Below are positions 1,551 through 54,255 of a stretch of 64,000 nt of DNA, in pieces. The position numbers and the translations under genes were made by a program. The notes below the pieces were generated by a model, which was given only the letters and a program-made list of their open reading frames with translations, searched no databases and was not told where the DNA came from. The stretch is taken from the NCBI GenBank assembly GCA_000165345.1, contig CM000432.1:128001-192000 (forward strand). The letters run 5' to 3'. Numbering within the stretch: position 1 is the first letter of the stretch; each line of letters starts with the position of its first letter.

Positions 1551-4500
1551 ATGCAAGTAACATTAAGTTTTGCAGAAAAGCTGAGACCACATTTGAGAAA
1601 ATGTGTGTCTTTGTTTATATTATCAATACTGGTATTTAATGGTAGGTTGAAAATAAAATGAGGGAATTTTTTCTAGTCAAGAGAGAATTTACTATGAATA
1701 AAGAAAAAATTTCCAATACAAATTGAAAAATTAAAAAACAATTTATCTTTGAACAAATTGACTAAAATTTTAATTAGAACCAATTAATTCAGAGAATGGA
1801 CCACAATTAAGAAGATTAGGATCTCATCATCTTCATCACTCGCATCATCATACCCCTGTTCAAGTTCAGGGAAGTATTGTAAGAACGCCAACTGCTCAAG
1901 GATTAGCAAGAGAACTTCCTATTCCAACGCCTTTATATTCTCAAGTTCCAGAAGTGAATGGATCTGAGGAAACTGTTACATCAATACAAGAAACTGTGGT
2001 TGAAACAGGCCATCCAAAGTATTCAAAAAGAGATGTGATTGTTACAAGAGATCCCTTTTACACATGTCCTATGGGATTCAATTTCGAAGGTAAGTTAATA
2101 GGTTTTTTTATTTTCATTTAAACTTTGGAATAACTTTTATTTTAAATTAATTTTTTTTTATAGTTCCTACAATTGATGGAATATCATCATCCCCTCAGCA
2201 AAAATGTTTCAAAATGGAAGTAGCAGATTTTGTATTGGGATGTCCAAATGGTTGGGCATTTAATGGGATTAAATGCACGGGAGTTTTAACAGCAGATGCA
2301 CAGAAAGCATGTGATGAAGGTTTGGATATTTTAATGGACGAAAATGTTGGTATTCAATGTGTACAAAATTTGGTTGCCCCAAAACTTATTTCTTGTCCAG
2401 AAAATTACTTATTATTAGAAAATGAATGCGTTTTTCCAATGCATTCAAAACCTGATTTGATTTGTCCGGAATCCTTTGTTCCACTAAGTAATGGAAATTG
2501 TCAGAAAGATATAAGAGTTCCCGCAGCACTGGAATGTCCTCCAGAATACATTTTAAATAATGGTGAATGTGAAAAAAGAGTCGAAGTTCCAATATCACAA
2601 TTTAATAAAATTTGTCCATTAGGTTTTAATTTGGATACTGATGGAAATTGCACAAAACAAGTAAATATGAATGCTTTATTTACTTGTAAAGAAGGTTATG
2701 AAAAATCTCCAGTTGGAAATGGAGAAAATGGCTGTGTTAGATCAATTGTAATAGATGCAAGATATAGATGTCCACAAGAGTAAGTTTGGATTTGATTAAA
2801 AGTAATTATTTTAATTCATCATAGATATGAACTTATAGATAATAAATGTGTAAAGAAGATGACAAAGCCTCCAATGGTTTCTTGTCAAGAAGGTAAGTTT
2901 TTCATATCATTATTTCAAATAAATAACACTTAAATAAAAACCATTTACAATGCTTTATTTCTTAATCATTATTTTAACTAAATTAGGTTATTCTTTGGAA
3001 AATAATATTGAATGTGTTAAACAAAGCAAGTTACCAGCTAAATTTGAATGTCCAAAGAAGAAAGATTATATGTATAACCCACAAACAAAGTTATGTCATT
3101 CAATGAGTCATCATCATTCTCGTAAGTTATTAATTTGAAAATATATCAAAGAGACTAAAACTAATAATAACCTTTTTAATATCAGAGAAAACACATCAGC
3201 CATTAGTAGTATGTCCAGCTGGATCTATCCCACAAGACAATAGTCACTGTTTATCTATTGAAAGGTCACCTCCAAAAGTGGAATGCCTTGATTCAGGTAA
3301 GTTATTTCGACGGAAAAATCTTTTTGAAAAGAAAGTTTGAATTTGACTGTTTTTAATAATTTATAGGTTGGATTTTTGATCAGAGCATGAAATTATGTGT
3401 ATACAATGAATATACAAGTGTAAATTTTGAATGTCCCATGAATTCTCAAAATATAGGTAACGGAAAGTAAGTTGAAATAGGAAATCAAATAGTAAAAATA
3501 AAACACTTTACTTTAAAAAATACAAAGATGTAAAGTAATGGAAACTGAAAGTACTGATATTGAATGTCCACCTGAATTTGTATATGAAGGAAATGGACTA
3601 TGTATTAGCAGAATACAAGCGGATCCCCAGATTAAATGTCCAAATGGTAAGTTTTAATTGAGTATTTGTAAAATTTTTCCTAATTACAAGTCTTATTTAA
3701 ATAATATTAACTTTATTAAATCATTGAAAACAGGGTCATCTGCTACTCCTCAAGGAACCTGCTTAAAAATTGAATTAATATTACCAAAACCAATTTGTCC
3801 AGAAGGACTTAGACCATCAATAACAGTAATGGATGGACAAATTCCATTGTGTATAGGAAGAGAAACAGTACCAAAACAAGAAACTTGTCCTTCAAATTAT
3901 GAACTTGTGACAGCCTCTGATACTGGGTTAAGAAGATGCAGAACATATACAAAAAGTGAACCAATAATAGCTTGTGCAAATGGATTTGTAGAGGATGCTC
4001 AAGGTTGTGTACAAACTATTACATCTTCTCCAAGACTACTATGTCCAGAAGACTATATACTTCAATATTCTAGATGTATTAAACAAATTGAGGATATGCC
4101 AAATAAAATGTGTCCAGCAGGATTTGAATTGATTGACGATGACCAATGCAGTCAAACAGTTTACTCGAAACCAATTCCAAATTGTCCTGACGATTATATG
4201 TTTGACAATATTGTTAAAAGATGTTATAAAGTAGATGTCCAATATGATTTTGCATCTGTAGATACAGGTATTTACAAGCAAAATTTTACAAGCATTGTAC
4301 AGACAGGAGAAAAGGATGATGATAAAGATGAAAAAACAAGTGAAAATGAGACAATTAAAGAAACTTTTCAAACAAATAATCCTCCTTTCCAGAATCAAAT
4401 TCCAAATTATCCTGGTGGAAGGTATCCTCCATATGAGAGAATGCTCCCTCCTCAAACTCAATCTCAATCCATAAGGCCTCCTCCAGTTCAGACAATGTAT

Positions 4501-4704
4501 CCACCACAAGCATATTTACAAAATGGAGTCTATTCAAGCTACGGAGGAATGATGCCTCAACCTACACAACTTAATACTGGTGCTGCAGGCTACGGCTACC
4601 CCTTTCCTGGCTTCCAACAGTATGCGCCTGCTCCAAGGTTTACAAATAGTCCATCTTACCCAGTTTATATGAGAAGTCTTTCGGAAGAAAAAAATGAGTT
4701 ATAA
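1551..4704 (+). CDS. Secreted cysteine-repeat protein of the Cryptosporidium oocyst-wall-protein (COWP) type, multi-exon. Proposed exons: 1551..1641 (candidate signal-peptide exon, low confidence), 1778 or 1793..2089, 2164..2779, 2825..2892, 2987..3121, 3186..3296, 3367..3466, 3528..3646, 3734..4704 (stop included).
   Basis: Repeated C-P-x-G-[FYW]-x-[LF]...C units (CPNGW, CPENYLL, CPESFVPL, CPPEYIL, CPLGFNL, CPAGS, CPPEF, CPEGL, CPSNYEL, CPEDYIL, CPAGFEL, CPDDYMF) match COWP type-I repeats. Every junction has a GTAAGT-like donor, an AG acceptor and a continuous frame (phases 1,2,1,1,1,2,1), and the joined sequence keeps the Cys spacing, for example ...RYRCPQE|YELIDNKCVKK... and ...NIGNGK|CKVMETESTDIECPPEF.... 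A His-rich stretch (HHLHHSHHH) sits near the N-terminus and a Pro/Gln/Tyr-rich tail at the C-terminus. Exon 1 (MQVTLSFAEKLRPHLRKCVSLFILSILVFN, donor G|GTAGGT, phase 1) is only a prediction of the missing signal peptide. Confidence 0.6.
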
Positions 4705-5180: not shown

Positions 5181-5827
5181 CAAAAATTTTTCGATATATT
5201 TGGGAATGGAATATGATGATTAGGGGGGAAAAAAGTGAGAGAAGCAAACAATAAAGATAATCTTCAAAAATGTTGGGAGTTATGTGATCTGGAACATAAA
5301 TATATAAGTTTGGTGAGAATAAAAAGAAAATGGACAGAGTATATTGAAAATTAAACTATGGGGGCATCAAGTGAATCATACCAGGTTTTAAATATCAAAG
5401 AAAATAAATGAACATTAACCTCAGGTGCGAAAAACATTTAATACAATCAAAAAACTTAGAAAAAAGCGGTAAACGTGCAGTAAGAATATTTATATTTAAA
5501 TAGTCAAGAATAAATAGTAATTTGAATAATTGGTAAGGAACTAAACGGCGGGAAAATAAATGTAGACAGATACCAAACAAAAACAATTTTTGGAAAAAAA
5601 AGCTGAAAAAGGGCCCACAAGAAGGTATAAAAATTGATCAAGATTATTAAAGTTTCAGAGAGTTCTTGGAAGTTTTTACGGCATTATTGCCAGAAAGTGG
5701 GTAATCTATCTGAAATCAGTGAAATTTTTGGAAAAAACAACTGTGTGGATTGTATTGTAGAATTAGCGAAAAATCGATGACAAGAATAAACTAAAAGAGC
5801 CTGGTGCAATATTTAGACTTGAATTCA

Positions 5828-8800
5828 ATGCTGAATCGACTGTATATGGCCGAGAAGGCCTTATCTATACTTCGCAGTGGCAATGCTATACCTTATCCTG
5901 AACCACAAGGTAGTGTAAGAAGCCAGTGGGATTTTTTACTACAGGAGATGACATGGATGTCAAAAGATTATTATGAAGAGCGAAGATGGAAAATTTATGC
6001 AGCCAGACGTTTATCACAAATGGTTCAGAATTATTGGAGGAAAAAGATGCTCAATTTGGAACGCCATATTTCATCTAAATGTAGCGCATTAATTCAGTCA
6101 TTTTGGCTTGGGATTGCTGATAATGTAGATCCTGAATTAATACCAAATGATTTGAAGCCATATACAATGGTTGTTCAGCCTGCACCCGTTGGTGAGGATG
6201 GTCAGGCAAACGCTTCTAAAAGGCGTTTATATAATTATTGCATAAGACAATTTGAAAGGAGTTTATATGAGTGTGAAAAGCTTAATGAGTTGACTAAAAC
6301 TTCTAACGATAATAATAAGGAGAAGAACGTTGAGAATGTTTCAGAAAATGAGATTCCAGCCTCTCCAATGAGCATTGACATCGACCACGATAACGAAAGT
6401 TGTCAGTGGGTAGTAGATGAGGATTTATTGCTACAATTGGATCCACTAGTCTTTGTAAAAACTGCAATTCCACCGACTGCATCATCCACAGATATAATTG
6501 ATCTAGATAACATCCAAAATAAGGGTTCATCAACCAATCAAAATATAGGATCTTCGGCATTAGGTGGTACAAATGCAAATACAAATGCAAGTAATACGGG
6601 AAATACTGTTGGAAGTTCTTCCAAATCTTCATCAAACAATTCGGCCATAACCAAATATTCAGAAATATCCGATTTATTTAACGAATTTTCAAAGAAGCAG
6701 GAAACCGTAGTGGATTTGAATGATTATCGTAAATATCTTGAGAATTGGGCAGATACTGTTCAAGTACTACTTCAAGGACCTGGAATAATTAATACAAGAG
6801 CAGAGTATCGCCCACCTAATTTTCATTTGGATTCAAAGAATTATTTGGTCGCTCCCAGGTCAAACTTTCTGGAGATGGAAGATATATCTCTCATTCTTTC
6901 TCTGTTTGTACTTGCAGTGGATCACTTACCAGCATTCTTAAATCGTTATATGGCATCATCTCCTTCTAATGTTGTATATAGATCTTCAGGAGGAATGATA
7001 TCAGGTTCTTCGTCTCATGAATCTATGGTAAACGACTTTAATGTAGAAAGTAAAAGGAAGAGTAGAAGAAGAGCAGCTTCAAACACAAAGAAGATATCTG
7101 GTGTAATGCCTCCACCCATTCAATCCTCAGTTTCAATGCCACATGGAGTTTCTGGTGGTATTGGTCTTCCACAATCTTCTGCGGTGTCTTCAGTTGGAGG
7201 TGCTATGGGTGGAGGAGTTGCAGGAGGAGCAGTTTCTGCTTCTGGAGGGATTTCAGGTCCTAGCACTGTTCCAATGGTAGGAGACCAATCTACAAGCTTT
7301 GATATTCTTGCATATGCCGATACTTGGGATACTTCCGAAGACATTATATTAGTTTATTTCGTTTCTCAATACTCTTCAACACCTAGTTGTGGGGTTTTGA
7401 GCAAAAAGTTGGTTCCCACAACAAATTGGAACTTGATTGCATTATCTCATAATTACTTTTTTGGTGCTTTATATGGGAGGATGAAAACAGCAAAGCAATG
7501 TCAGGAAAGGTGGAACTTTTTGAATAGGGATGAAATTGATGGATCATCTATTGAGCATGTTGAAAAGAATGTTAGCAAGGATAAAGCTACTGAGGAAGAA
7601 GCTGTTAGTAACAATGGAGAATTATCTGGGAATGCAAGCAACAAAGAAGCAGCTAGCGCTATAGTTATGACTGAAGGCAACGATACAGGTAATGTTACCA
7701 AGAGCGATATAGATCGGTTGATGAAAAGGGAGAAGCAAATCCGGATAATGCCTAATTTGAACAAGCGATATATTATAAGCAGTACTCTTTTGAAACATTT
7801 AAAGGAGTTTAGTAAATCTTTGGAAGATTCCGAGGGATCTGAAAACAAAGCGGAGAATGGATGCCCTAAAGTTGCTTCAGAAGAAGTTGGAGGTGAATTG
7901 ACCGGCACAATAGATTCATCTTCAATGAAAGATTCAAAGGAATTAGAGAAAATGGAAAGTAATGTTACTGATGGTAAAGCTATTTATGGAGACAACTTGC
8001 TATATTTCAAGAAAAAGATCATTCCTAAGATGACTATATTGGATTTAATCGAAAAGAGCAACAATGTGAGAAGTAAGACGGAGAATCATTTAGAGAGTAA
8101 TTCGGGTTCTAATAATGATAATAGTACCGGCTCTAGTATATTAGCTTCTCAGAATAATCAGGGATCTGAGGGTACCCATAACGAAGTTAAAAGCCAGAAT
8201 ATTGTTTCCAATAATGAAGATGGTGAATGCACTAATAGGGGAAATAACAAGGGGTCAAATAATATTAAGACAGTAAGCTCTTATCAGAGAGAGCAATTGG
8301 AGCTTTTGTCTTCAATAGTGAGCAAATTTGGTGCAAACATGAGAAAGAGGTCATTACAGAATCAGCAGTTTCAAGACTCTTTCCAGATTACTTCTTATCT
8401 GCAGACAATTCAACAAAATTATGGGTCAAACATCCTTCAGGACGGGGTATTACCACCTCACCAGAGCCATGCAAATCTAGTAGCACATGTTAATCAGATG
8501 CTAAATCAACATATAGAGTCTACAATGGCCAATTATAATAATACTGGAGGTGGTAATGTTGGCAACAATACTTCCACAAGTACTAATACTGGTGGTGTAA
8601 ATACTAATCCCAATAATGCTGGGACTTCTAATGCTAATGCTGGTGGGAATAATATCAATGGAAATGTTAACAACAATATTGGCGGTGGAGGTAGCATTGT
8701 TGGAAATAATTCTAATGGAGTAATTAACTCAGGCTCAGGTGGTCCTAGTACCAGTAGTAACATGCCAAATCATACTCAAGGTAATTCGGGTACTCAAATG

Positions 8801-11245
8801 GGAGGTGGAGCTCAATTAGGATCTTCCAATTTTACTCCTCTTCCAAGCGGAATACCTGCCCATTTATTAGCTCCAGGAAATCTTCCTTCTGCAACTAGTG
8901 TTGAGGAGTATCTATCTCGTTTACCTGGGATTGATATACAGCTAAAGCTGATCGATTATTCCCTGGATAGGTATCGCCAGAGTACAATGGGAGGAAGATA
9001 CGGAGGCACTGGGATTTTGATGTCGACTTCTTCAACATGTAGAAAGCCTCAATTACCCGAGTTTTTGCTACAGCGCTCGGTAATTAATAGCGGAGCTAAT
9101 TCAGGGATAGTTGGTGGTGGACAACAGGGGGCCAATATTCATGGAGTTGGTCAACATGTTGGAATGATGCCCCCTCAACAGGGGATGATTCATCAGGGAG
9201 GAGGCGTCAGTAGTGGTGTGGGAGGCGATCAGCAAGTTCCTTTGCAACAGTCATCTTACACCCCTCCAGTAATCTCCGGACAACCCGGTCAGATGATTCT
9301 TCCAAATAACCAGATGATTAAGATGAAAAAGAGAGAGATTAACCAGAAACAGGTGGTTGCTCAGGCAAGCAATATAAAGAGGAGGAAAACCAATATGATT
9401 CCTCCCAACTCCCAACCAAATAGCATGATGGGGCCAAATGGAGTTCAAGGGGAAATGATTCAGTCTCATGGAAGGATTGGGATGATGCAGGGAATACCTC
9501 CACATATGGGGGGAGCAGGCCAGGGAATTCCACAGCCACATTCCCATCCTCATTCTCATCACCTTCAACAGCAACAACCTGGTTCCTCTTCTCAGTTACA
9601 GCCTCAGCAATATCAGGCTCAACAGTACTATCCACAACAACATCCGCAACAACATCCACAACAACAACAGCAGCACCCACAACAGCAACATCATCAACAG
9701 CAAATACAACAGAACCAGCATTCGATTCCCCAAGTTCAACATCATCACCAGCAGTACCAGCAACAACAGCAGCAGCAACAACAGCAGCAGCAACAACAGC
9801 AGCAGCAACAGCAACAGCAACAGCAGCATCAACAACAACAGCACCCTCACTCTCACCCCCATGTTCAGCAACAACCAATCCAGGGACAAACACACACTCA
9901 ACATACTTCATCTCACCCTTCATTAGGTAATTCCCAAATGCACCTCTCTATGCAACAAATGCAACAACAAAAATACAATCAGTATCACTCACAACAGGTA
10001 ACTCCCCAAGCCCAGTCTTCCCACCAACAACATCATATAGGTAATCCATATCAACAAACCCAAAATCAGGGCCAATATCATTCTCAGCAAATGGGAATGA
10101 TGCAGGGTCCAGTGGTTGGACCTGATATGCATGGAGGAAATTCTACTGCAGGAGCCTATGGCCAGAGTATGGGCACTAAGAGGGGAGTTCAACCTGGAGG
10201 AATGAACCACCCCTCTGCACAGATGATGAATACTCAGGGTTCCCATGGAGCTGTAGGCGGTATCGGGAGTGTCTCATCTTCGTCTATAGTCGGAAGTAAT
10301 GGTAATAGCGGTAATAGTGTTGGTATTGGAAATAGTGGGAATGGAGGAAGTATGTCTAGGCAGGTGAATACTTATATGGGATACTCTGGTATGCAAAACA
10401 GAGGAGGGAACGGGCCCGGCGATATGAACTCCGGGATGGGAGAAGGCGTAATGGGAGTTGGGATAAACGTGAATGGGCCTGGACAAGCTCCAGGGGTAGC
10501 TTCGCACCAAGTTTCTACAAGCGGCCGACTTATTCCTCCATCTTCGTCAATGGATGGCCAGAGGTACAGTAATGCAAGCTCAAATGCAAGTAGCATGAAT
10601 GGGGTTGGAGTAGGAGGAGGTGGAGTCTCTGGATCAAGTTCGGGATTACCATCAAATGAGAATAGCATTTCAGGAACTCACAAGATGGTGGCGGGAGGTG
10701 TCCCTCAACATCAACAACAGCCTCAGTCAATGCAGAAACTAGGAGTATCCAATCCTGGATATATTGGAGGTGGGAGTACTGGTACAATAGGAGGAAATAA
10801 CTCCGAAATGTGGGTTGGCGCTGGAAATGTAGATTTGGTAACAGGAGGAGGCCCTACTTCATCACAGTCTCTTCCAGTAGTTCGCCATCAATCACACTCA
10901 AATATTGGAAGCGGAATTCCTCATGGTACGGGTATGATCAGTGGAGGAGGTGGAGGAATGCATTCTGATACACACTTAGGACCTTCTATTAAGCAAAACT
11001 CAATGAATCAGCATTACAGTAATTTGAATGGAGATTTGAATTCTAATATTGGAGCAGCAGCAACTTCAGTAGGAGGAGCTTTGAATGGAGTCCAGGTCAC
11101 TGGTGGTATGGATGAAGGGGTAAGTATTACTGGAACTGGTCATAGTACTACAAATTCTACTAATACAGGAGTAATTTCGACTTCTAATTTAAACATTAAT
11201 ATTGCTGATAAAACTAATAACAACATCAATAGTAATTCCCAATGA
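5828..11245 (+). CDS. Eaf1/Vid21-like HSA + SANT protein (platform subunit of the NuA4/TIP60-type histone acetyltransferase complex), followed by ~900 aa of Gln/His/Gly/Asn-rich low complexity
   Basis: The HSA signature SQWDFLLQEMTWMSKDYYEERRWKIYAARRLSQMV (compare HWDYLLEEMxWMSxDFxxERKWK in Eaf1/p400/Domino) is followed by a SANT/Myb-like block WDTSEDIILVYFVSQY...RMKTAKQCQERWNFL. No ATPase domain is present, so the architecture is Eaf1-like rather than p400/Swr1. The ORF track opens at a GTG at 5804; the first ATG is 5828. Confidence 0.6.
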   Translation: MLNRLYMAEKALSILRSGNAIPYPEPQGSVRSQWDFLLQEMTWMSKDYYEERRWKIYAARRLSQMVQNYWRKKMLNLERHISSKCSALIQSFWLGIADNVDPELIPNDLKPYTMVVQPAPVGEDGQANASKRRLYNYCIRQFERSLYECEKLNELTKTSNDNNKEKNVENVSENEIPASPMSIDIDHDNESCQWVVDEDLLLQLDPLVFVKTAIPPTASSTDIIDLDNIQNKGSSTNQNIGSSALGGTNANTNASNTGNTVGSSSKSSSNNSAITKYSEISDLFNEFSKKQETVVDLNDYRKYLENWADTVQVLLQGPGIINTRAEYRPPNFHLDSKNYLVAPRSNFLEMEDISLILSLFVLAVDHLPAFLNRYMASSPSNVVYRSSGGMISGSSSHESMVNDFNVESKRKSRRRAASNTKKISGVMPPPIQSSVSMPHGVSGGIGLPQSSAVSSVGGAMGGGVAGGAVSASGGISGPSTVPMVGDQSTSFDILAYADTWDTSEDIILVYFVSQYSSTPSCGVLSKKLVPTTNWNLIALSHNYFFGALYGRMKTAKQCQERWNFLNRDEIDGSSIEHVEKNVSKDKATEEEAVSNNGELSGNASNKEAASAIVMTEGNDTGNVTKSDIDRLMKREKQIRIMPNLNKRYIISSTLLKHLKEFSKSLEDSEGSENKAENGCPKVASEEVGGELTGTIDSSSMKDSKELEKMESNVTDGKAIYGDNLLYFKKKIIPKMTILDLIEKSNNVRSKTENHLESNSGSNNDNSTGSSILASQNNQGSEGTHNEVKSQNIVSNNEDGECTNRGNNKGSNNIKTVSSYQREQLELLSSIVSKFGANMRKRSLQNQQFQDSFQITSYLQTIQQNYGSNILQDGVLPPHQSHANLVAHVNQMLNQHIESTMANYNNTGGGNVGNNTSTSTNTGGVNTNPNNAGTSNANAGGNNINGNVNNNIGGGGSIVGNNSNGVINSGSGGPSTSSNMPNHTQGNSGTQMGGGAQLGSSNFTPLPSGIPAHLLAPGNLPSATSVEEYLSRLPGIDIQLKLIDYSLDRYRQSTMGGRYGGTGILMSTSSTCRKPQLPEFLLQRSVINSGANSGIVGGGQQGANIHGVGQHVGMMPPQQGMIHQGGGVSSGVGGDQQVPLQQSSYTPPVISGQPGQMILPNNQMIKMKKREINQKQVVAQASNIKRRKTNMIPPNSQPNSMMGPNGVQGEMIQSHGRIGMMQGIPPHMGGAGQGIPQPHSHPHSHHLQQQQPGSSSQLQPQQYQAQQYYPQQHPQQHPQQQQQHPQQQHHQQQIQQNQHSIPQVQHHHQQYQQQQQQQQQQQQQQQQQQQQQQQHQQQQHPHSHPHVQQQPIQGQTHTQHTSSHPSLGNSQMHLSMQQMQQQKYNQYHSQQVTPQAQSSHQQHHIGNPYQQTQNQGQYHSQQMGMMQGPVVGPDMHGGNSTAGAYGQSMGTKRGVQPGGMNHPSAQMMNTQGSHGAVGGIGSVSSSSIVGSNGNSGNSVGIGNSGNGGSMSRQVNTYMGYSGMQNRGGNGPGDMNSGMGEGVMGVGINVNGPGQAPGVASHQVSTSGRLIPPSSSMDGQRYSNASSNASSMNGVGVGGGGVSGSSSGLPSNENSISGTHKMVAGGVPQHQQQPQSMQKLGVSNPGYIGGGSTGTIGGNNSEMWVGAGNVDLVTGGGPTSSQSLPVVRHQSHSNIGSGIPHGTGMISGGGGGMHSDTHLGPSIKQNSMNQHYSNLNGDLNSNIGAAATSVGGALNGVQVTGGMDEGVSITGTGHSTTNSTNTGVISTSNLNINIADKTNNNINSNSQ
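9750..9840 (+). repeat. (CAG/CAA)n microsatellite encoding a ~37-residue poly-Gln run inside the Eaf1-like CDS, flanked by HSHPHSHH His-Pro repeats
   Basis: Direct reading shows the cagcaacaacagcagcag... array. The opposite-strand Leu-rich ORFs at 9339..9923 and 9596..9904 are artefacts of this repeat. Confidence 0.9.
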
Positions 11246-51438: not shown

Positions 51439-54255
51439 TTAGAACTTATTTTTTCTTGTATATTGCATTTGATTTTGGTATTGGAAATTAGTATTATCTC
51501 CTATATTATTATTAATATAATTCCCTTGAACAGACTTACCACATAAACCATCTTGTCTCATGTATGTGCCATTGGGACATTGATATGTTGGATCCATTAC
51601 TCCAACACATTTACCTTCAGATTGGGTATATCCTGATGGACAACTAAGTATGAATGGAGCAAATTCAAGAGCAGCACATTGACCAATATTTGATAAAGGC
51701 CTTACAGAGCCAAATAATCTTCTTCTTTGTCCAAAACCGCTAATACTTGCTAATTTTGCCATTTGCAAAGAATTGTTTTCATTGTAATAATTATTTGATG
51801 ATAGAATTCCTTCTTGAGACATATTTGAGAAAGAATTGTTCATGTTGGAGTAATTGACCACATTTCTAACTTCAGAGTATCCAGGTGGACATTGCATTTT
51901 TCCCTCAGTTGGAACAAGCTCTATACAATTTTTATGCTTACAGCTCTTCTTGTGAATATACCTACATTTATTATGTTGTGTTATTTTTCCTCCCGATAAA
52001 CAATGATATTTAAAAGGTTTCTTGATAGTTTCCATACACATATCTGCTTTATGAAGCCCAAGTGGCTCGGTTTTTTCTGGACATTCCACATTAGGCTTAA
52101 ATTCTAAATAACTTTCACAGCCTTCAATTGGACAGGTTTTTTCTATTGTTTCTAGGCAAAAGTCTCCCATTAAAGTCGAACTATCATCCAAACATCTTTT
52201 TTCTATAGGTTGAGTCACTTTAGAGACACATTTTGGCTTTTCTTTAATGTTTGAGATCACTTTAATACTATGATGAGTGCCATGATGATGATTTGAAATC
52301 AACATTCTTTTATTATAACTGGCTGTTTCAAGAATATCATCTCCTGTAAAAATTTCACTTCCGAAAGGGCATTTCCATTCAGGGCCAGACATTTTTGCTA
52401 TATTTCTACAGTTTTCACTTCTACACACTGGATTTTTAGTTTCAATGCATTCATATTGGCCAAATTCATTAGTTCTTAGCTCAAAGTTATCTGAACATTG
52501 ATAGAGAGGATTCATTTTCTTTTCTCTGGGATTTTCTTCTCCTTTTGGGATACATTTTGGAAGTCTGGTTGTTGAGCTCTCGGATAATAAGTAGCCTTCT
52601 GAGCATTTGTACAAGATAGAATCAATGTTTTGCTGCTCACATCTACCACTTCTCAATTTGTAATCAGTTGGACAACTAAAGTTTGGCATAACTGAACTAA
52701 TTTTAATGCATTTCCTCTTATCAGTAGACTGTGAACCATTATGGCAGACATACGTAGCTGGAGCTGTTTCTACGTTAACACACATTTTGGGTATGTATTC
52801 TGGTATCTCAACACATTGATGTACTATTTTAGTACTTTCTCTGGGAACAATATAATCACGATGATGTCCATGGTGATGATTTCCATGATTAAGCATCATA
52901 TTCAAATTTCTAGTCTCTAAAACGACTTCTTCTCTATTAATATCTATTCCAGTTTCAGTATCATAGCTAGTACACTTTTTCTTGTATTGAGTAATTGAAC
53001 AATCCTTTTCTATCTTTCTCTCACATACTTGAGTTTGTAAATTCAATACAAATCTTGGAGGACAAGTAACAATTGGATCAATTTCAATCTCTCTCTTGCA
53101 TTGATTATCAACTTGATCAAAGATATATCCCTCTGGACAATCAACATTCGGGCTCATGCTTTGATTCTTTACACAATATTGGCCAACAATAACTGCATCT
53201 GGATCCATACAATATGAAAGTGGGTTAATTTCAATAATTTGTCTCTCCTGAAGATAACATAAACCATTTCTATGTATATATCCGTCATTACAACGAGGAA
53301 TTGCTGATTCCTTTTTTATACACTTTCTAACACTTTCAACAAATACAAAACCGATTGGACATTGTTGTGGAATTTCTTCTTTTATTAAATAGCAAATATC
53401 TTCTCCTGAATGATCTTTTTCCATAATCATTCCAGCAGGACATTCGGAAATAGGCTGCATAAATTCTTCTTTCTGACAATAATGTCGTGATTCTAAAGTT
53501 GGATATGCACCTTGAATTGATGAATCTCGTTTAACATCTTTCAATAAATAACCTTCTGGACAGAATATTTCTGGTCTTGACTTTTGATTACATGATCCTT
53601 TACCATTATCTGATGATCCCTCTGGACATATTGGCTTATGAAATACCTTAACCCTACAAACTGGAGACTTTGAACCATCGTCATTGTACTCTTTTTCACC
53701 ATCCAAAAATGCTACATTTGATGTATAGCTAGACTCATCCTGTTCATGAATTGCTCGAATAGATAAAGGTATCTCACGGCAACTATATTCTTTCTTAACC
53801 AATTTTTTAATATAGCATCCATCATCTCTTTCTTCCTCATTTACCCCACAATTCATTTCTGCTTCCTTTAATTTATAACAATCACCATTTCCATCTTCAA
53901 TATATCCTGCTTCGCACTTTGGAGTTTCTCTATTTTCTATATAACATGCCTGAGTGCGCTTGTCATATCTAGTGTTTTCTGGGCACGTCAAAACCTTATC
54001 TGTATGTACATTTTTACTACATTGAGTTGCTCCTGGTGAAGATTTAAATCCCTCAGGACAAGATTTCAACAATTGCTCAGTTACAATACAACCGTTTTCT
54101 TGCTCTGAAAATATTCCGTTATGTGGACAGTTTGGAATAGGGCTAACTAAACAATCAATTCCATTACATATCGCACCATTTGCACTGACAAGGGTATTTG
54201 TTTTGATCCAAATCCCTAATAGCAATATATATAAAATCAAATTAAAAGGAAGCAT
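51439..54255 (-). CDS. Oocyst-wall-protein (COWP)-family cysteine-repeat secreted protein, intronless, 938 aa
   Basis: A signal peptide MLPFNLILYILLLGIWIKTNTLVSANG is followed by tandem C-P-x-G-[FY]-x-[LF]...C units (CPEGFKS, CEAGYIED, CPEGYLLKD, CPAGMIM, CPIGFVFV, CNDGYIH, CPEGYIFD, CPPRFVLN, CSEGYLL, CPFGSEIF, CPPGYSEV, CPSGYTQ, CPNGTYM) and His-rich tracts (HGNHHHGHH, NHHHGTHH). It is a paralogue of the gene at 1551..4704. Confidence 0.7.
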   Translation of the reverse strand: MLPFNLILYILLLGIWIKTNTLVSANGAICNGIDCLVSPIPNCPHNGIFSEQENGCIVTEQLLKSCPEGFKSSPGATQCSKNVHTDKVLTCPENTRYDKRTQACYIENRETPKCEAGYIEDGNGDCYKLKEAEMNCGVNEEERDDGCYIKKLVKKEYSCREIPLSIRAIHEQDESSYTSNVAFLDGEKEYNDDGSKSPVCRVKVFHKPICPEGSSDNGKGSCNQKSRPEIFCPEGYLLKDVKRDSSIQGAYPTLESRHYCQKEEFMQPISECPAGMIMEKDHSGEDICYLIKEEIPQQCPIGFVFVESVRKCIKKESAIPRCNDGYIHRNGLCYLQERQIIEINPLSYCMDPDAVIVGQYCVKNQSMSPNVDCPEGYIFDQVDNQCKREIEIDPIVTCPPRFVLNLQTQVCERKIEKDCSITQYKKKCTSYDTETGIDINREEVVLETRNLNMMLNHGNHHHGHHRDYIVPRESTKIVHQCVEIPEYIPKMCVNVETAPATYVCHNGSQSTDKRKCIKISSVMPNFSCPTDYKLRSGRCEQQNIDSILYKCSEGYLLSESSTTRLPKCIPKGEENPREKKMNPLYQCSDNFELRTNEFGQYECIETKNPVCRSENCRNIAKMSGPEWKCPFGSEIFTGDDILETASYNKRMLISNHHHGTHHSIKVISNIKEKPKCVSKVTQPIEKRCLDDSSTLMGDFCLETIEKTCPIEGCESYLEFKPNVECPEKTEPLGLHKADMCMETIKKPFKYHCLSGGKITQHNKCRYIHKKSCKHKNCIELVPTEGKMQCPPGYSEVRNVVNYSNMNNSFSNMSQEGILSSNNYYNENNSLQMAKLASISGFGQRRRLFGSVRPLSNIGQCAALEFAPFILSCPSGYTQSEGKCVGVMDPTYQCPNGTYMRQDGLCGKSVQGNYINNNIGDNTNFQYQNQMQYTRKNKF

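Follow-up and report, generated by a model that had tools for sequence, protein, structure and literature searches.

A conserved cysteine-free, tyrosine-rich tail on the Cryptosporidium oocyst wall protein COWP7

The Cryptosporidium oocyst wall protein COWP7 carries a cysteine-free C-terminal tail of ~110 residues on which purifying selection acts, and we tentatively favour the view that this tail is a conserved assembly and sorting module that integrates COWP7 into the wall. The oocyst wall underlies the survival of Cryptosporidium under chlorination and its spread by water. According to the prevailing view it is a purely cysteine/disulfide-based lattice, as opposed to the tyrosine-linked walls of Eimeria. 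COWP7 is one family member with a second, strongly selected module devoid of cysteine, which whole-protein composition screens miss. Since a tagged strain and a guide RNA exist, the tail offers a genetically tractable handle on wall protein sorting, assembly and perhaps cross-linking, with the caveat that the C-terminus resembles an ER-retrieval signal and has been buried by the tag in all localisations so far.

Results

The COWP7 gene and its product

In the 64,000-nucleotide stretch of DNA analysed here (the window), we built by hand a gene model of nine exons and eight introns in which the splice phases close and whose spliced product is 100% identical to COWP7 of C. parvum Iowa II (cgd4_500, 840 aa; EAK87738.1 / Q5CQJ2). 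The eight introns agree with the published gene (PMC12548878), the mass of the model product (93.94 kDa) equals the published value, and a published cDNA primer across the exon 2/3 junction matches the spliced coding sequence and is absent from the genomic sequence. Moreover, the frame of exon 9 is open in four orthologous loci. The exons and the features of the C-terminal region are as follows, in window coordinates:

1551..1641, plus strand: exon 1, with the start codon and the signal-peptide-like N-terminus MQVTLSFAEKLRPHLRKCVSLFILSILVFN
1778..2089, plus strand: exon 2, with an invariant RRLG (RRL at aa 42-44) plus a His-rich run (1810-1851); the repeat array starts here with its first Cys
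2164..2779, plus strand: exon 3, Cys repeats (hand-built model)
2825..2892, plus strand: exon 4 (hand-built model)
2987..3121, plus strand: exon 5 (hand-built model)
3186..3296, plus strand: exon 6 (hand-built model)
3367..3466, plus strand: exon 7 (hand-built model)
3528..3646, plus strand: exon 8 (hand-built model)
3734..4704, plus strand: exon 9, with the last 13 Cys of the array, linker, tail and stop codon
4225..4374, plus strand: Cys-free linker, aa 682-731, its first part (YKVDVQYDFASVDT...) conserved
4375..4584, plus strand: Pro/Gln/Tyr/Gly-rich variable spacer, aa 732-801, with 7 Tyr and a conserved RML (4438-4446, aa 753-755)
4585..4680, plus strand: invariant core AGYGYPFPGFQQYAPAPRFTNSPSYPVYMRSL, aa 802-833, in which 5 Tyr and 2 Phe are invariant
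4612-4623 and 4672-4680, plus strand: the motifs FQQY and RSL (aa 831-833), respectively, within the core AGYGYPFPGFQQYAPAPRFTNSPSYPVYMRSL
4681..4701, plus strand: acidic C-terminal peptide SEEKNEL, ending in the KDEL-like KNEL (4690-4701)

By inspection, the N-terminus reads as a signal peptide, with a basic N-region that precedes the hydrophobic CVSLFILSILVF, and signal peptides are stated for COWPs (PMC12548878). The body of the protein is an array of 44 Cys between aa 127 and 681, spaced 11-22 residues apart (median 12). With its signal peptide, its Cys array and its identity to a named member, COWP7 is a genuine COWP, which bears out the original prediction of a COWP-type protein from the sequence of the window. 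A Pfam search with the whole protein returned no match at E values up to 10. Two minus-strand ORFs (4039-4509 and 4355-4537) are spurious, as the plus frame combines saturated synonymous change with a conserved protein. The gene is already known; its tail anatomy is apparently undescribed, as we found no account of the tail architecture in the literature searched.

Composition of the tail

The tail occupies positions 4372-4704 of the plus strand (frame start 4372, stop codon 4702-4704), where it had been predicted. The peptide originally quoted for it is exact and corresponds to aa 734-830 of the spliced model, but it stops short of the C-terminus, omitting the last ten residues (RSLSEEKNEL), which prove relevant. 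Those 97 quoted residues are indeed free of Cys and hold 12 Tyr rather than 14, together with 21 Pro, 12 Gln and 9 Gly. The tail overall has 0 Cys, 11% Tyr, 19% Pro and 11% Gln, its Tyr content contrasting with 3.2% in the COWP7 body and with a background of 3.5% in the long ORFs of the window. At this background, a stretch of 98 aa would hold at least 12 Tyr with a probability of ~2e-4, and among the 12,567 segments of 109 aa tested the tail is alone in reaching 12 Tyr.

The tail has no repeat unit. There is no sign of the Tyr periodicity that had been envisaged, the spacing of the aromatic residues being like that of shuffled sequences (z about -1), and sticker-and-spacer design therefore gains no specific support. 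Tandem repeats are absent too, as TRF reports only a trivial (CTCAAT)x3. Nor is the label prion-like appropriate, with Q+N at 18% and Pro at 19%.

Conservation of the tail

The tail consists of three parts, a variable spacer, an invariant 32-aa core and an acidic end, and it follows a linker in which conservation is poor over the acidic stretch EKDDDKDEKTSENETIKE (from 4309; mean identity to orthologues 0.36). Across ten Cryptosporidium species the length of the tail is about kept, with 11-14 Tyr, five of them invariant. C. parvum, C. hominis, C. tyzzeri, C. meleagridis, C. ubiquitum and the chipmunk genotype have no indels in the tail and differ by few substitutions at most; free variation, which the original prediction had named as evidence against itself, is thus not seen. 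In C. bovis and C. andersoni the Tyr positions are shifted while composition and Tyr count are held. The spacer accounts for this drift: its sequence changes (pN/pS 0.26-0.41 versus C. felis and C. bovis) while its length is held and its composition and Tyr number are kept in all 10 species, and Tyr is not favoured, its conservation of 0.84 comparing with 0.84 for Pro and 0.86 for Gln.

The core AGYGYPFPGFQQYAPAPRFTNSPSYPVYMRSL has a mean identity of 0.96 across the nine other species and ranks among the most conserved 36-aa segments of COWP7, its Phe, Pro, Gly and Gln being as invariant as its Tyr. Compared with C. felis it shows 18 synonymous and 0 nonsynonymous differences, and with pN/pS at 0-0.05 and pS at 0.8-0.9 its synonymous sites are saturated. 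Since the amino acids are kept under these circumstances, what is constrained is the protein, not the DNA. A DNA- or RNA-level element behind the conservation of the tail is ruled out on the same grounds.

All 10 species share the terminal -EL, although both of its codons show synonymous change, and the orthologues end in KNEL, KTEL, NGEL, YEEL or EDEL. KNEL of C. parvum fits the PROSITE pattern [KRHQSA][DENQ]EL. According to the code of Raykhel 2007, which was measured in mammalian cells and not in Cryptosporidium, KTEL and EDEL occur as natural signals that have been tested (AGR2 -KTEL, ERp18 -EDEL), and reporters with Y or N at -4 and any non-Pro residue at -3 are effective. All five tetrapeptides lie within this tested KDEL-like range, with NGEL of C. 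canis being the weakest and marginal. A 9-aa insertion in C. bovis falls between the conserved RSL, which lies 7 residues from the C-terminus, and -EEL, leaving the terminal EEL intact. To judge from these sequences, the end of COWP7 looks like an ER-retrieval signal. Soluble ER proteins such as ERp18 (-EDEL), AGR2 (-KTEL) and CRT3 (-RNEL) likewise combine a signal peptide with a C-terminal x-x-E-L, whereas COWP7 is a repeat-rich protein of structural type that is seen in the wall, the role of its motif being predicted.

The tail is restricted to COWP7

A profile of the tail searched against 1.84e9 representative proteins retrieved only COWP7 clusters at E<=0.001 and no homology to GAM56/82 or any Tyr-rich wall protein. 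Pfam gave no match to the tail alone (E up to 10), and against all PDB sequences the profile produced chance-level matches only, to herpesvirus capsid protein at E 0.13. AlphaFold2, given exon 9 and an alignment of six sequences, assigned no secondary structure to the spacer at a mean pLDDT of 40, a model too weak to support or exclude a fold. Given this model, the Pro content of 19% and a mean hydropathy at or below the Uversky boundary, the spacer is probably disordered.

COWP1-6, 8 and 9 share with COWP7 the signal peptide, the Cys arrays spaced by ~12 residues, expression in sexual stages and localisation to the wall. The tail is absent from all of these, however, as the profile matches COWP7 only. 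COWP2 ends in a His-rich stretch, unlike COWP7, and COWP7 is also unusual among COWPs in having 8 introns. The paralogue at 51439-54255, which lies on the minus strand (a point absent from the original prediction), encodes 938 aa with a mass of 106.43 kDa, the published mass of COWP3. As anticipated, it has no such tail: 5 Cys and 6 Tyr lie in its final 110 aa, and its Cys-containing C-terminal region closes with an N/Q/Y-rich stretch of only ~30 aa.

Published expression and localisation of COWP7

Transcription of COWP7 peaks sharply at 72 h, a time at which sexual stages occur, and in oocysts its mRNA is induced by an oxidative stressor together with those for thioredoxin and HSP70. COWP7-mNeon and COWP7-mScarlet label the oocyst wall evenly but dimly (PMC12548878). 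In these strains the fluorescent protein is fused directly after ...KNEL, and the native -EL is thus buried in every published localisation of COWP7, a relevant point in view of the warning by Raykhel et al. that C-terminal fusions can make KDEL-type proteins look secreted. The tagged strain also carries P827A inside the invariant core. As this strain was propagated and the fusion reached the wall, neither an unaltered P827 nor a free -EL is essential for viability or gross targeting. The available guide RNA lies at 4663-4682 of the window. Proteomics of oocyst walls yielded 20 COWP7 peptides, in a proteome that also contained ER Hsp90 and PDI, the latter being abundant in wall preparations. 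COWP7 is a low-abundance COWP, and an earlier purified-wall proteome is reported not to have detected it.

Discussion

How might the tail serve as an assembly and sorting module? In the scenario that we tentatively favour, the disulfide-bonded Cys-repeat body would form the structural unit of COWP7, while the flexible tail would present its invariant motif to a specific partner, either another wall component or COWP7 itself. Tyr, Phe and Arg of the spacer would add multivalent, non-covalent cohesion, and the KDEL-like end may slow COWP7 in the early secretory pathway, or hold it there or in a macrogamont storage compartment, up to the time of wall construction. The core is as invariant as one would expect of a specific interface or a recognition site, and not of a generic substrate. 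What we infer here is the disorder, the docking to a partner, the non-covalent cohesion and the retention; covalent fixation after assembly is conceivable at most.

Disordered P/Q/Y(/G)-rich regions drive the assembly of extracellular matrices in the case of amelogenin and wheat HMW glutenin subunits. Glutenin joins such regions to terminal domains whose Cys residues form disulfide networks, and amelogenin bears a short charged C-terminal peptide. However, these proteins use tandem repeats, of which the COWP7 tail has none, and there is no Pfam or PDB homology, the likeness being one of composition only.

It is possible, though in our view unlikely, that the tail serves oxidative cross-linking, with a peroxidase or oxidase coupling its Tyr to dityrosine or DOPA-derived links and thereby adding a second covalent chemistry to the wall. 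Eimeria and Toxoplasma provide the precedent for dityrosine links. The Tyr-rich tail, with its Ser/Gly/Pro context, resembles the Tyr-rich and likewise probably unstructured domains of the dityrosine-linked secreted wall proteins there, Eimeria GAM56/GAM82 and the small Tyr-rich proteins of Toxoplasma. In COWP7 the conserved RML and RSL (2 such motifs found versus 0.23 expected) flank 9 of the 12 Tyr, as RxL/RRL flank the Tyr-rich domains of GAM56/82. The kept Tyr number with its five invariant residues and the presence of COWP7 in the wall are consistent with such a role, and so is, circumstantially, the induction of its mRNA by an oxidative stressor. Moreover, with a whole-protein Tyr content of 4.2%, COWP7 would have been missed by composition screens like that for Tyr-rich proteins of Toxoplasma, in which the cut-off was >5% Tyr over the whole protein. 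However, dityrosine is stated to be absent from Cryptosporidium walls (PMC3760245), whereas the walls built with GAMs autofluoresce, and the tail is homologous neither to GAM56/82, which do not have COWP Cys repeats, nor to any other protein. In the GAMs the Tyr-rich domains lack positional conservation and are processed to small peptides, while the core of COWP7 is invariant, with Phe, Pro, Gly and Gln no less fixed than Tyr; in the spacer, too, Tyr is no better kept than Pro or Gln. Unlike the processed GAMs, COWP7 retains its C-terminal tag in the wall, which argues against complete removal of the tail. Finally, as a low-abundance COWP, COWP7 would be unable to harden the bulk of the wall.

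A further scenario, which we consider rather improbable, assigns the main role to the C-terminus: the KDEL-like end would keep COWP7 in the ER or in ER-derived wall-forming bodies until cleavage at RSL removes the signal and frees the protein when the wall is assembled, or else COWP7 would in part be an ER-resident folding factor for the other COWPs. The signal peptide together with an invariant -EL in five tetrapeptides of KDEL-like type points in this direction, as does the conserved RSL close to the end, with the C. bovis insertion falling between it and -EEL. All localisations come from C-terminal fusions, which can make such proteins look secreted (Raykhel et al.), one purified-wall proteome is reported not to have detected COWP7, and the proteome that did contain it also held ER Hsp90 and PDI. 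Induction by oxidative stress alongside thioredoxin and HSP70 would suit a folding-related factor. Yet this scenario leaves the conservation of 100 further residues unexplained, the body has the repeat array typical of a structural COWP, NGEL of C. canis is marginal as a signal, and the fusion signal is even and wall-like.

Perhaps both chemistry and retention operate in a minor wall component, although we regard this combination as improbable. COWP7 would be held by its KDEL-like end in ER-derived wall-forming bodies, cleaved at RSL upon fertilisation and then stitch the disulfide-bonded COWP lattice together by oxidative coupling of its tail. If so, the invariant core would be the recognition site of the coupling enzyme, and the published fusions, with their tags at the C-terminus, would have hidden retention signal and processing alike.

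Cross-linking of a transglutaminase type, in which Gln residues of the tail, such as those in the invariant FQQY, would donate acyl groups to Lys of other wall proteins, appears very improbable. The ten species have 11-15 Gln in the tail, including the invariant QQ pair, and with only 0-2 Lys the tail could serve as a donor only. PDI is abundant in wall preparations, and the PDIs of Giardia possess a transglutaminase activity that is tied to cyst wall formation. However, this case is built only from composition and analogy, and we know of no report of isopeptide bonds in Cryptosporidium.

That the tail is low-complexity sequence without a function, or that the 3' region is mis-annotated, as the lack of Pfam and PDB matches and the low AlphaFold2 confidence might suggest, is effectively refuted by the contrast between synonymous and nonsynonymous change, since the core amino acids barely change at saturated synonymous sites, and also conflicts with the frame being open in every species, the invariant tail length among close species and the expression of the C-terminal knock-in fusions.

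Tryptic peptides of the tail include MLPPQTQSQSIR, FTNSPSYPVYMR and SLSEEK.

The COWP7 gene and the anatomy of its tail

The tyrosine-rich tail belongs to a plus-strand gene in the AT-rich window (32% GC), whose model we assembled by hand. It has nine exons and eight introns of 45-136 nt each (GTAAGT/GTAGGT...AG) with closing splice phases, and the tail lies within the last exon.

Exons of the hand-built COWP7 model
1551-1641, plus strand: exon 1
1778-2089, plus strand: exon 2
2164-2779, plus strand: exon 3
2825-2892, plus strand: exon 4
2987-3121, plus strand: exon 5
3186-3296, plus strand: exon 6
3367-3466, plus strand: exon 7
3528-3646, plus strand: exon 8
3734-4704, plus strand: exon 9

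The spliced product of 840 aa matches oocyst wall protein 7 of C. parvum Iowa II (COWP7, cgd4_500) at every residue, bearing out the COWP-type assignment of the original prediction. The model is secure, since this identity agrees with the computed mass (93.94 kDa, the value printed in a wall proteome), the intron count (eight, as in PMC12548878) and a published cDNA-specific primer that crosses the exon 2/3 junction and is present in the spliced CDS but absent from the genomic sequence. The C. canis database model has no signal peptide and contains an inserted segment, GRSNTYVPFPLIMNYR, at the position of C. parvum intron 3, while that of C. felis has a short N-terminus and omits VPTI where exons 2 and 3 join; these oddities are probably annotation errors, not biology.

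While the gene itself is already known, the literature searched neither mentions the tail nor describes its architecture. The tail reading frame begins at 4372. The peptide originally quoted is letter-exact over its 97 aa, but holds 12 tyrosines where 14 had been claimed, and it leaves out the final RSLSEEKNEL. The tail (aa 732-840) is indeed Cys-free, the last Cys of COWP7 being residue 681, and consists of 11% Tyr, 19% Pro and 11% Gln, compared with a Tyr background of 3.5% in the long ORFs of the window; among 12,567 windows of 109 aa, no other holds at least 12 Tyr (binomial P ~2e-4). A supposed Tyr periodicity did not hold up, as aromatic spacing is indistinguishable from that of shuffled sequence. 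No tandem repeat was detected in the tail, nor does it contain adjacent aromatics anywhere.

Conservation and predicted structure

We aligned COWP7 from 10 Cryptosporidium species or genotypes (parvum, hominis, meleagridis, chipmunk genotype I, ubiquitum, one further assembly, felis, canis, bovis and andersoni). After a poorly conserved acidic linker (identity 0.36), the tail divides into a spacer, a core and an end, with an overall length of 107-127 aa. The P/Q/Y/G-rich spacer (aa 732-801) drifts in sequence (pN/pS 0.26-0.41 versus C. felis and C. bovis), but it keeps its length and composition, and the tail its number of Tyr (11-14), C. andersoni included despite its many differing positions. 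The core (aa 802-833, AGYGYPFPGFQQYAPAPRFTNSPSYPVYMRSL) is essentially invariant (mean identity 0.96), with all five Tyr, two Phe, a QQ pair and most Pro and Gly fixed, and belongs with the best-conserved 36-aa windows in the entire protein. Its codons show 17-20 synonymous differences over ~22 synonymous sites versus C. felis, C. bovis and C. andersoni, and 0-3 nonsynonymous differences versus the first two; with synonymous change near saturation and so few nonsynonymous changes, constraint must act on the protein. The Cys repeats are constrained no more strongly than the core. Nor does the tail vary freely among close relatives, an outcome that would have spoken against the original prediction: parvum, hominis, tyzzeri and meleagridis differ by only 1-3 substitutions and no indels. 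The tail is found in the gastric lineage (andersoni) and in intestinal lineages.

A profile of the tail matched only two clusters among 1.84 billion representative proteins, both COWP7, and Pfam and PDB sequence searches with it returned nothing meaningful; by these searches it is an orphan module confined to COWP7. AlphaFold2 modelling of the last exon from six sequences gave low confidence along the whole length (mean pLDDT 40), lowest of all in the tail, where it placed no secondary structure, a prediction compatible with disorder. Mean hydropathy lies on the Uversky boundary or slightly below it, and helices are unlikely because a proline occurs every few residues.

The C-terminal end and published localisation

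The C-terminal peptide is acidic and finishes in -EL in every aligned species, the terminal tetrapeptides being KNEL, KTEL, NGEL, YEEL and EDEL among the 10.

4672-4680, plus strand: RSL, a conserved RxL, 7 residues upstream of the end
4690-4701, plus strand: KNEL, the KDEL-like COWP7 terminus

Both last codons (E, L) differ synonymously between species, and C. bovis retains the terminal EEL despite an insertion of 9 aa. KNEL matches the PROSITE ER-retention pattern. In a systematic mammalian study (Raykhel 2007), position -4 tolerates K, R, H, N and aromatics and -3 anything but Pro, while E is preferred at -2 and L at -1; EDEL (ERp18) and KTEL (AGR2) are natural KDEL-like signals. Across the aligned species, the KDEL-like end is a genuinely conserved feature, and the conserved RSL upstream of it suggests a putative release cleavage.

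COWP7 tagged C-terminally with mNeon or mScarlet gives an even but dim oocyst wall label. All published localisations place the tag after -EL, a design about which Raykhel 2007 cautions, since C-terminal tags give KDEL-like proteins a secreted appearance; masking of the end is thus a caveat on these localisations. Apart from one change (P827A), the homology primer published for this tagging matches 4610-4701, and the tag follows it immediately, so that the fusion keeps the entire tail with KNEL now internal. The change affects Pro827 (Tyr826-Pro827 at 4657-4662) and falls inside the otherwise invariant core. As the strain propagates in mice and its fusion gets to the wall, Pro827 is dispensable for gross targeting and viability. 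COWP7 was detected in one wall proteome (20 peptides) and by whole-oocyst proteomics, but not in an earlier purified-wall proteome.

Possible roles of the tail

We tentatively regard the tail as a conserved assembly and sorting module of COWP7, a reading that may well be wrong. The flexible aromatic/proline spacer would display the invariant core as a docking motif, while the KDEL-like end would modulate passage through the early secretory pathway.

Oxidative Tyr cross-linking to dityrosine, as originally proposed, seems unlikely. The Tyr/Ser/Gly/Pro composition does resemble the Tyr-rich domains of the Eimeria wall proteins GAM56 and GAM82; these are flanked by RxL/RRL, and conserved RML and RSL surround 9 of the 12 tail Tyr (two motifs versus 0.23 expected). 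However, Cryptosporidium walls are stated to be without dityrosine (PMC3760245), COWP7 is a minor wall component, and the profile search revealed no homology to any Tyr-rich wall protein. Moreover, the position of the GAM domains is explicitly not conserved, whereas the COWP7 core is invariant, its non-Tyr residues as much as its Tyr. That retention and release, by way of the -EL end and RSL, are the main role of the tail is more doubtful still, and a transglutaminase substrate is highly improbable. These readings are not mutually exclusive. As a new variation within the already known COWP family, the tail qualifies the "Cys-only" view of this wall.

Mature oocysts exposed to a xanthine-oxidase oxidative stressor strongly upregulate COWP7 mRNA, together with thioredoxin and HSP70 (PMC8305202). 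Such a response is surprising if COWP7 serves the wall only as a structural protein, because the wall is already complete at this stage.

Upstream and neighbouring features

Two copies of the AP2_1 ApiAP2 site TGCATGCA (1353-1360 and 1372-1379) lie upstream of COWP7, ~175-200 bp before its start codon. In all, the window holds seven copies versus 0.64 expected, and enrichment of the motif has been reported upstream of COWP genes of the late class (Class II). COWP7 transcription peaks sharply at 72 h in culture. Near the N-terminus (1810-1851, aa 42-55, RRLGSHHLHHSHHH), an invariant RRLG precedes a His-rich run ~12 residues past the signal peptide, in 5/5 orthologues that have an N-terminus. 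RRL is thought to mark Eimeria GAM processing sites. In Toxoplasma, ASP5 cleaves RRL as the TEXEL site.

The intronless minus-strand ORF at 51439-54255 (938 aa, 62 Cys, no Pfam match) has a computed mass of 106.43 kDa, the published mass of COWP3. Two of its stretches are rich in His, NHGNHHHGHHRD and SNHHHGTHHS, and its C-terminal end is a short Cys-free, N/Q/Y-rich segment of ~30 aa; comparison of this C-terminus upholds the earlier statement that the paralogue lacks such a tail. Downstream of COWP7, a plus-strand ORF (5804-11245, 1813 aa) encodes an HSA domain, a weak Myb-like domain and long stretches of low complexity, among them 23 consecutive Gln (9758-9826), and it is also syntenic with COWP7 in C. 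meleagridis, C. bovis and C. andersoni.
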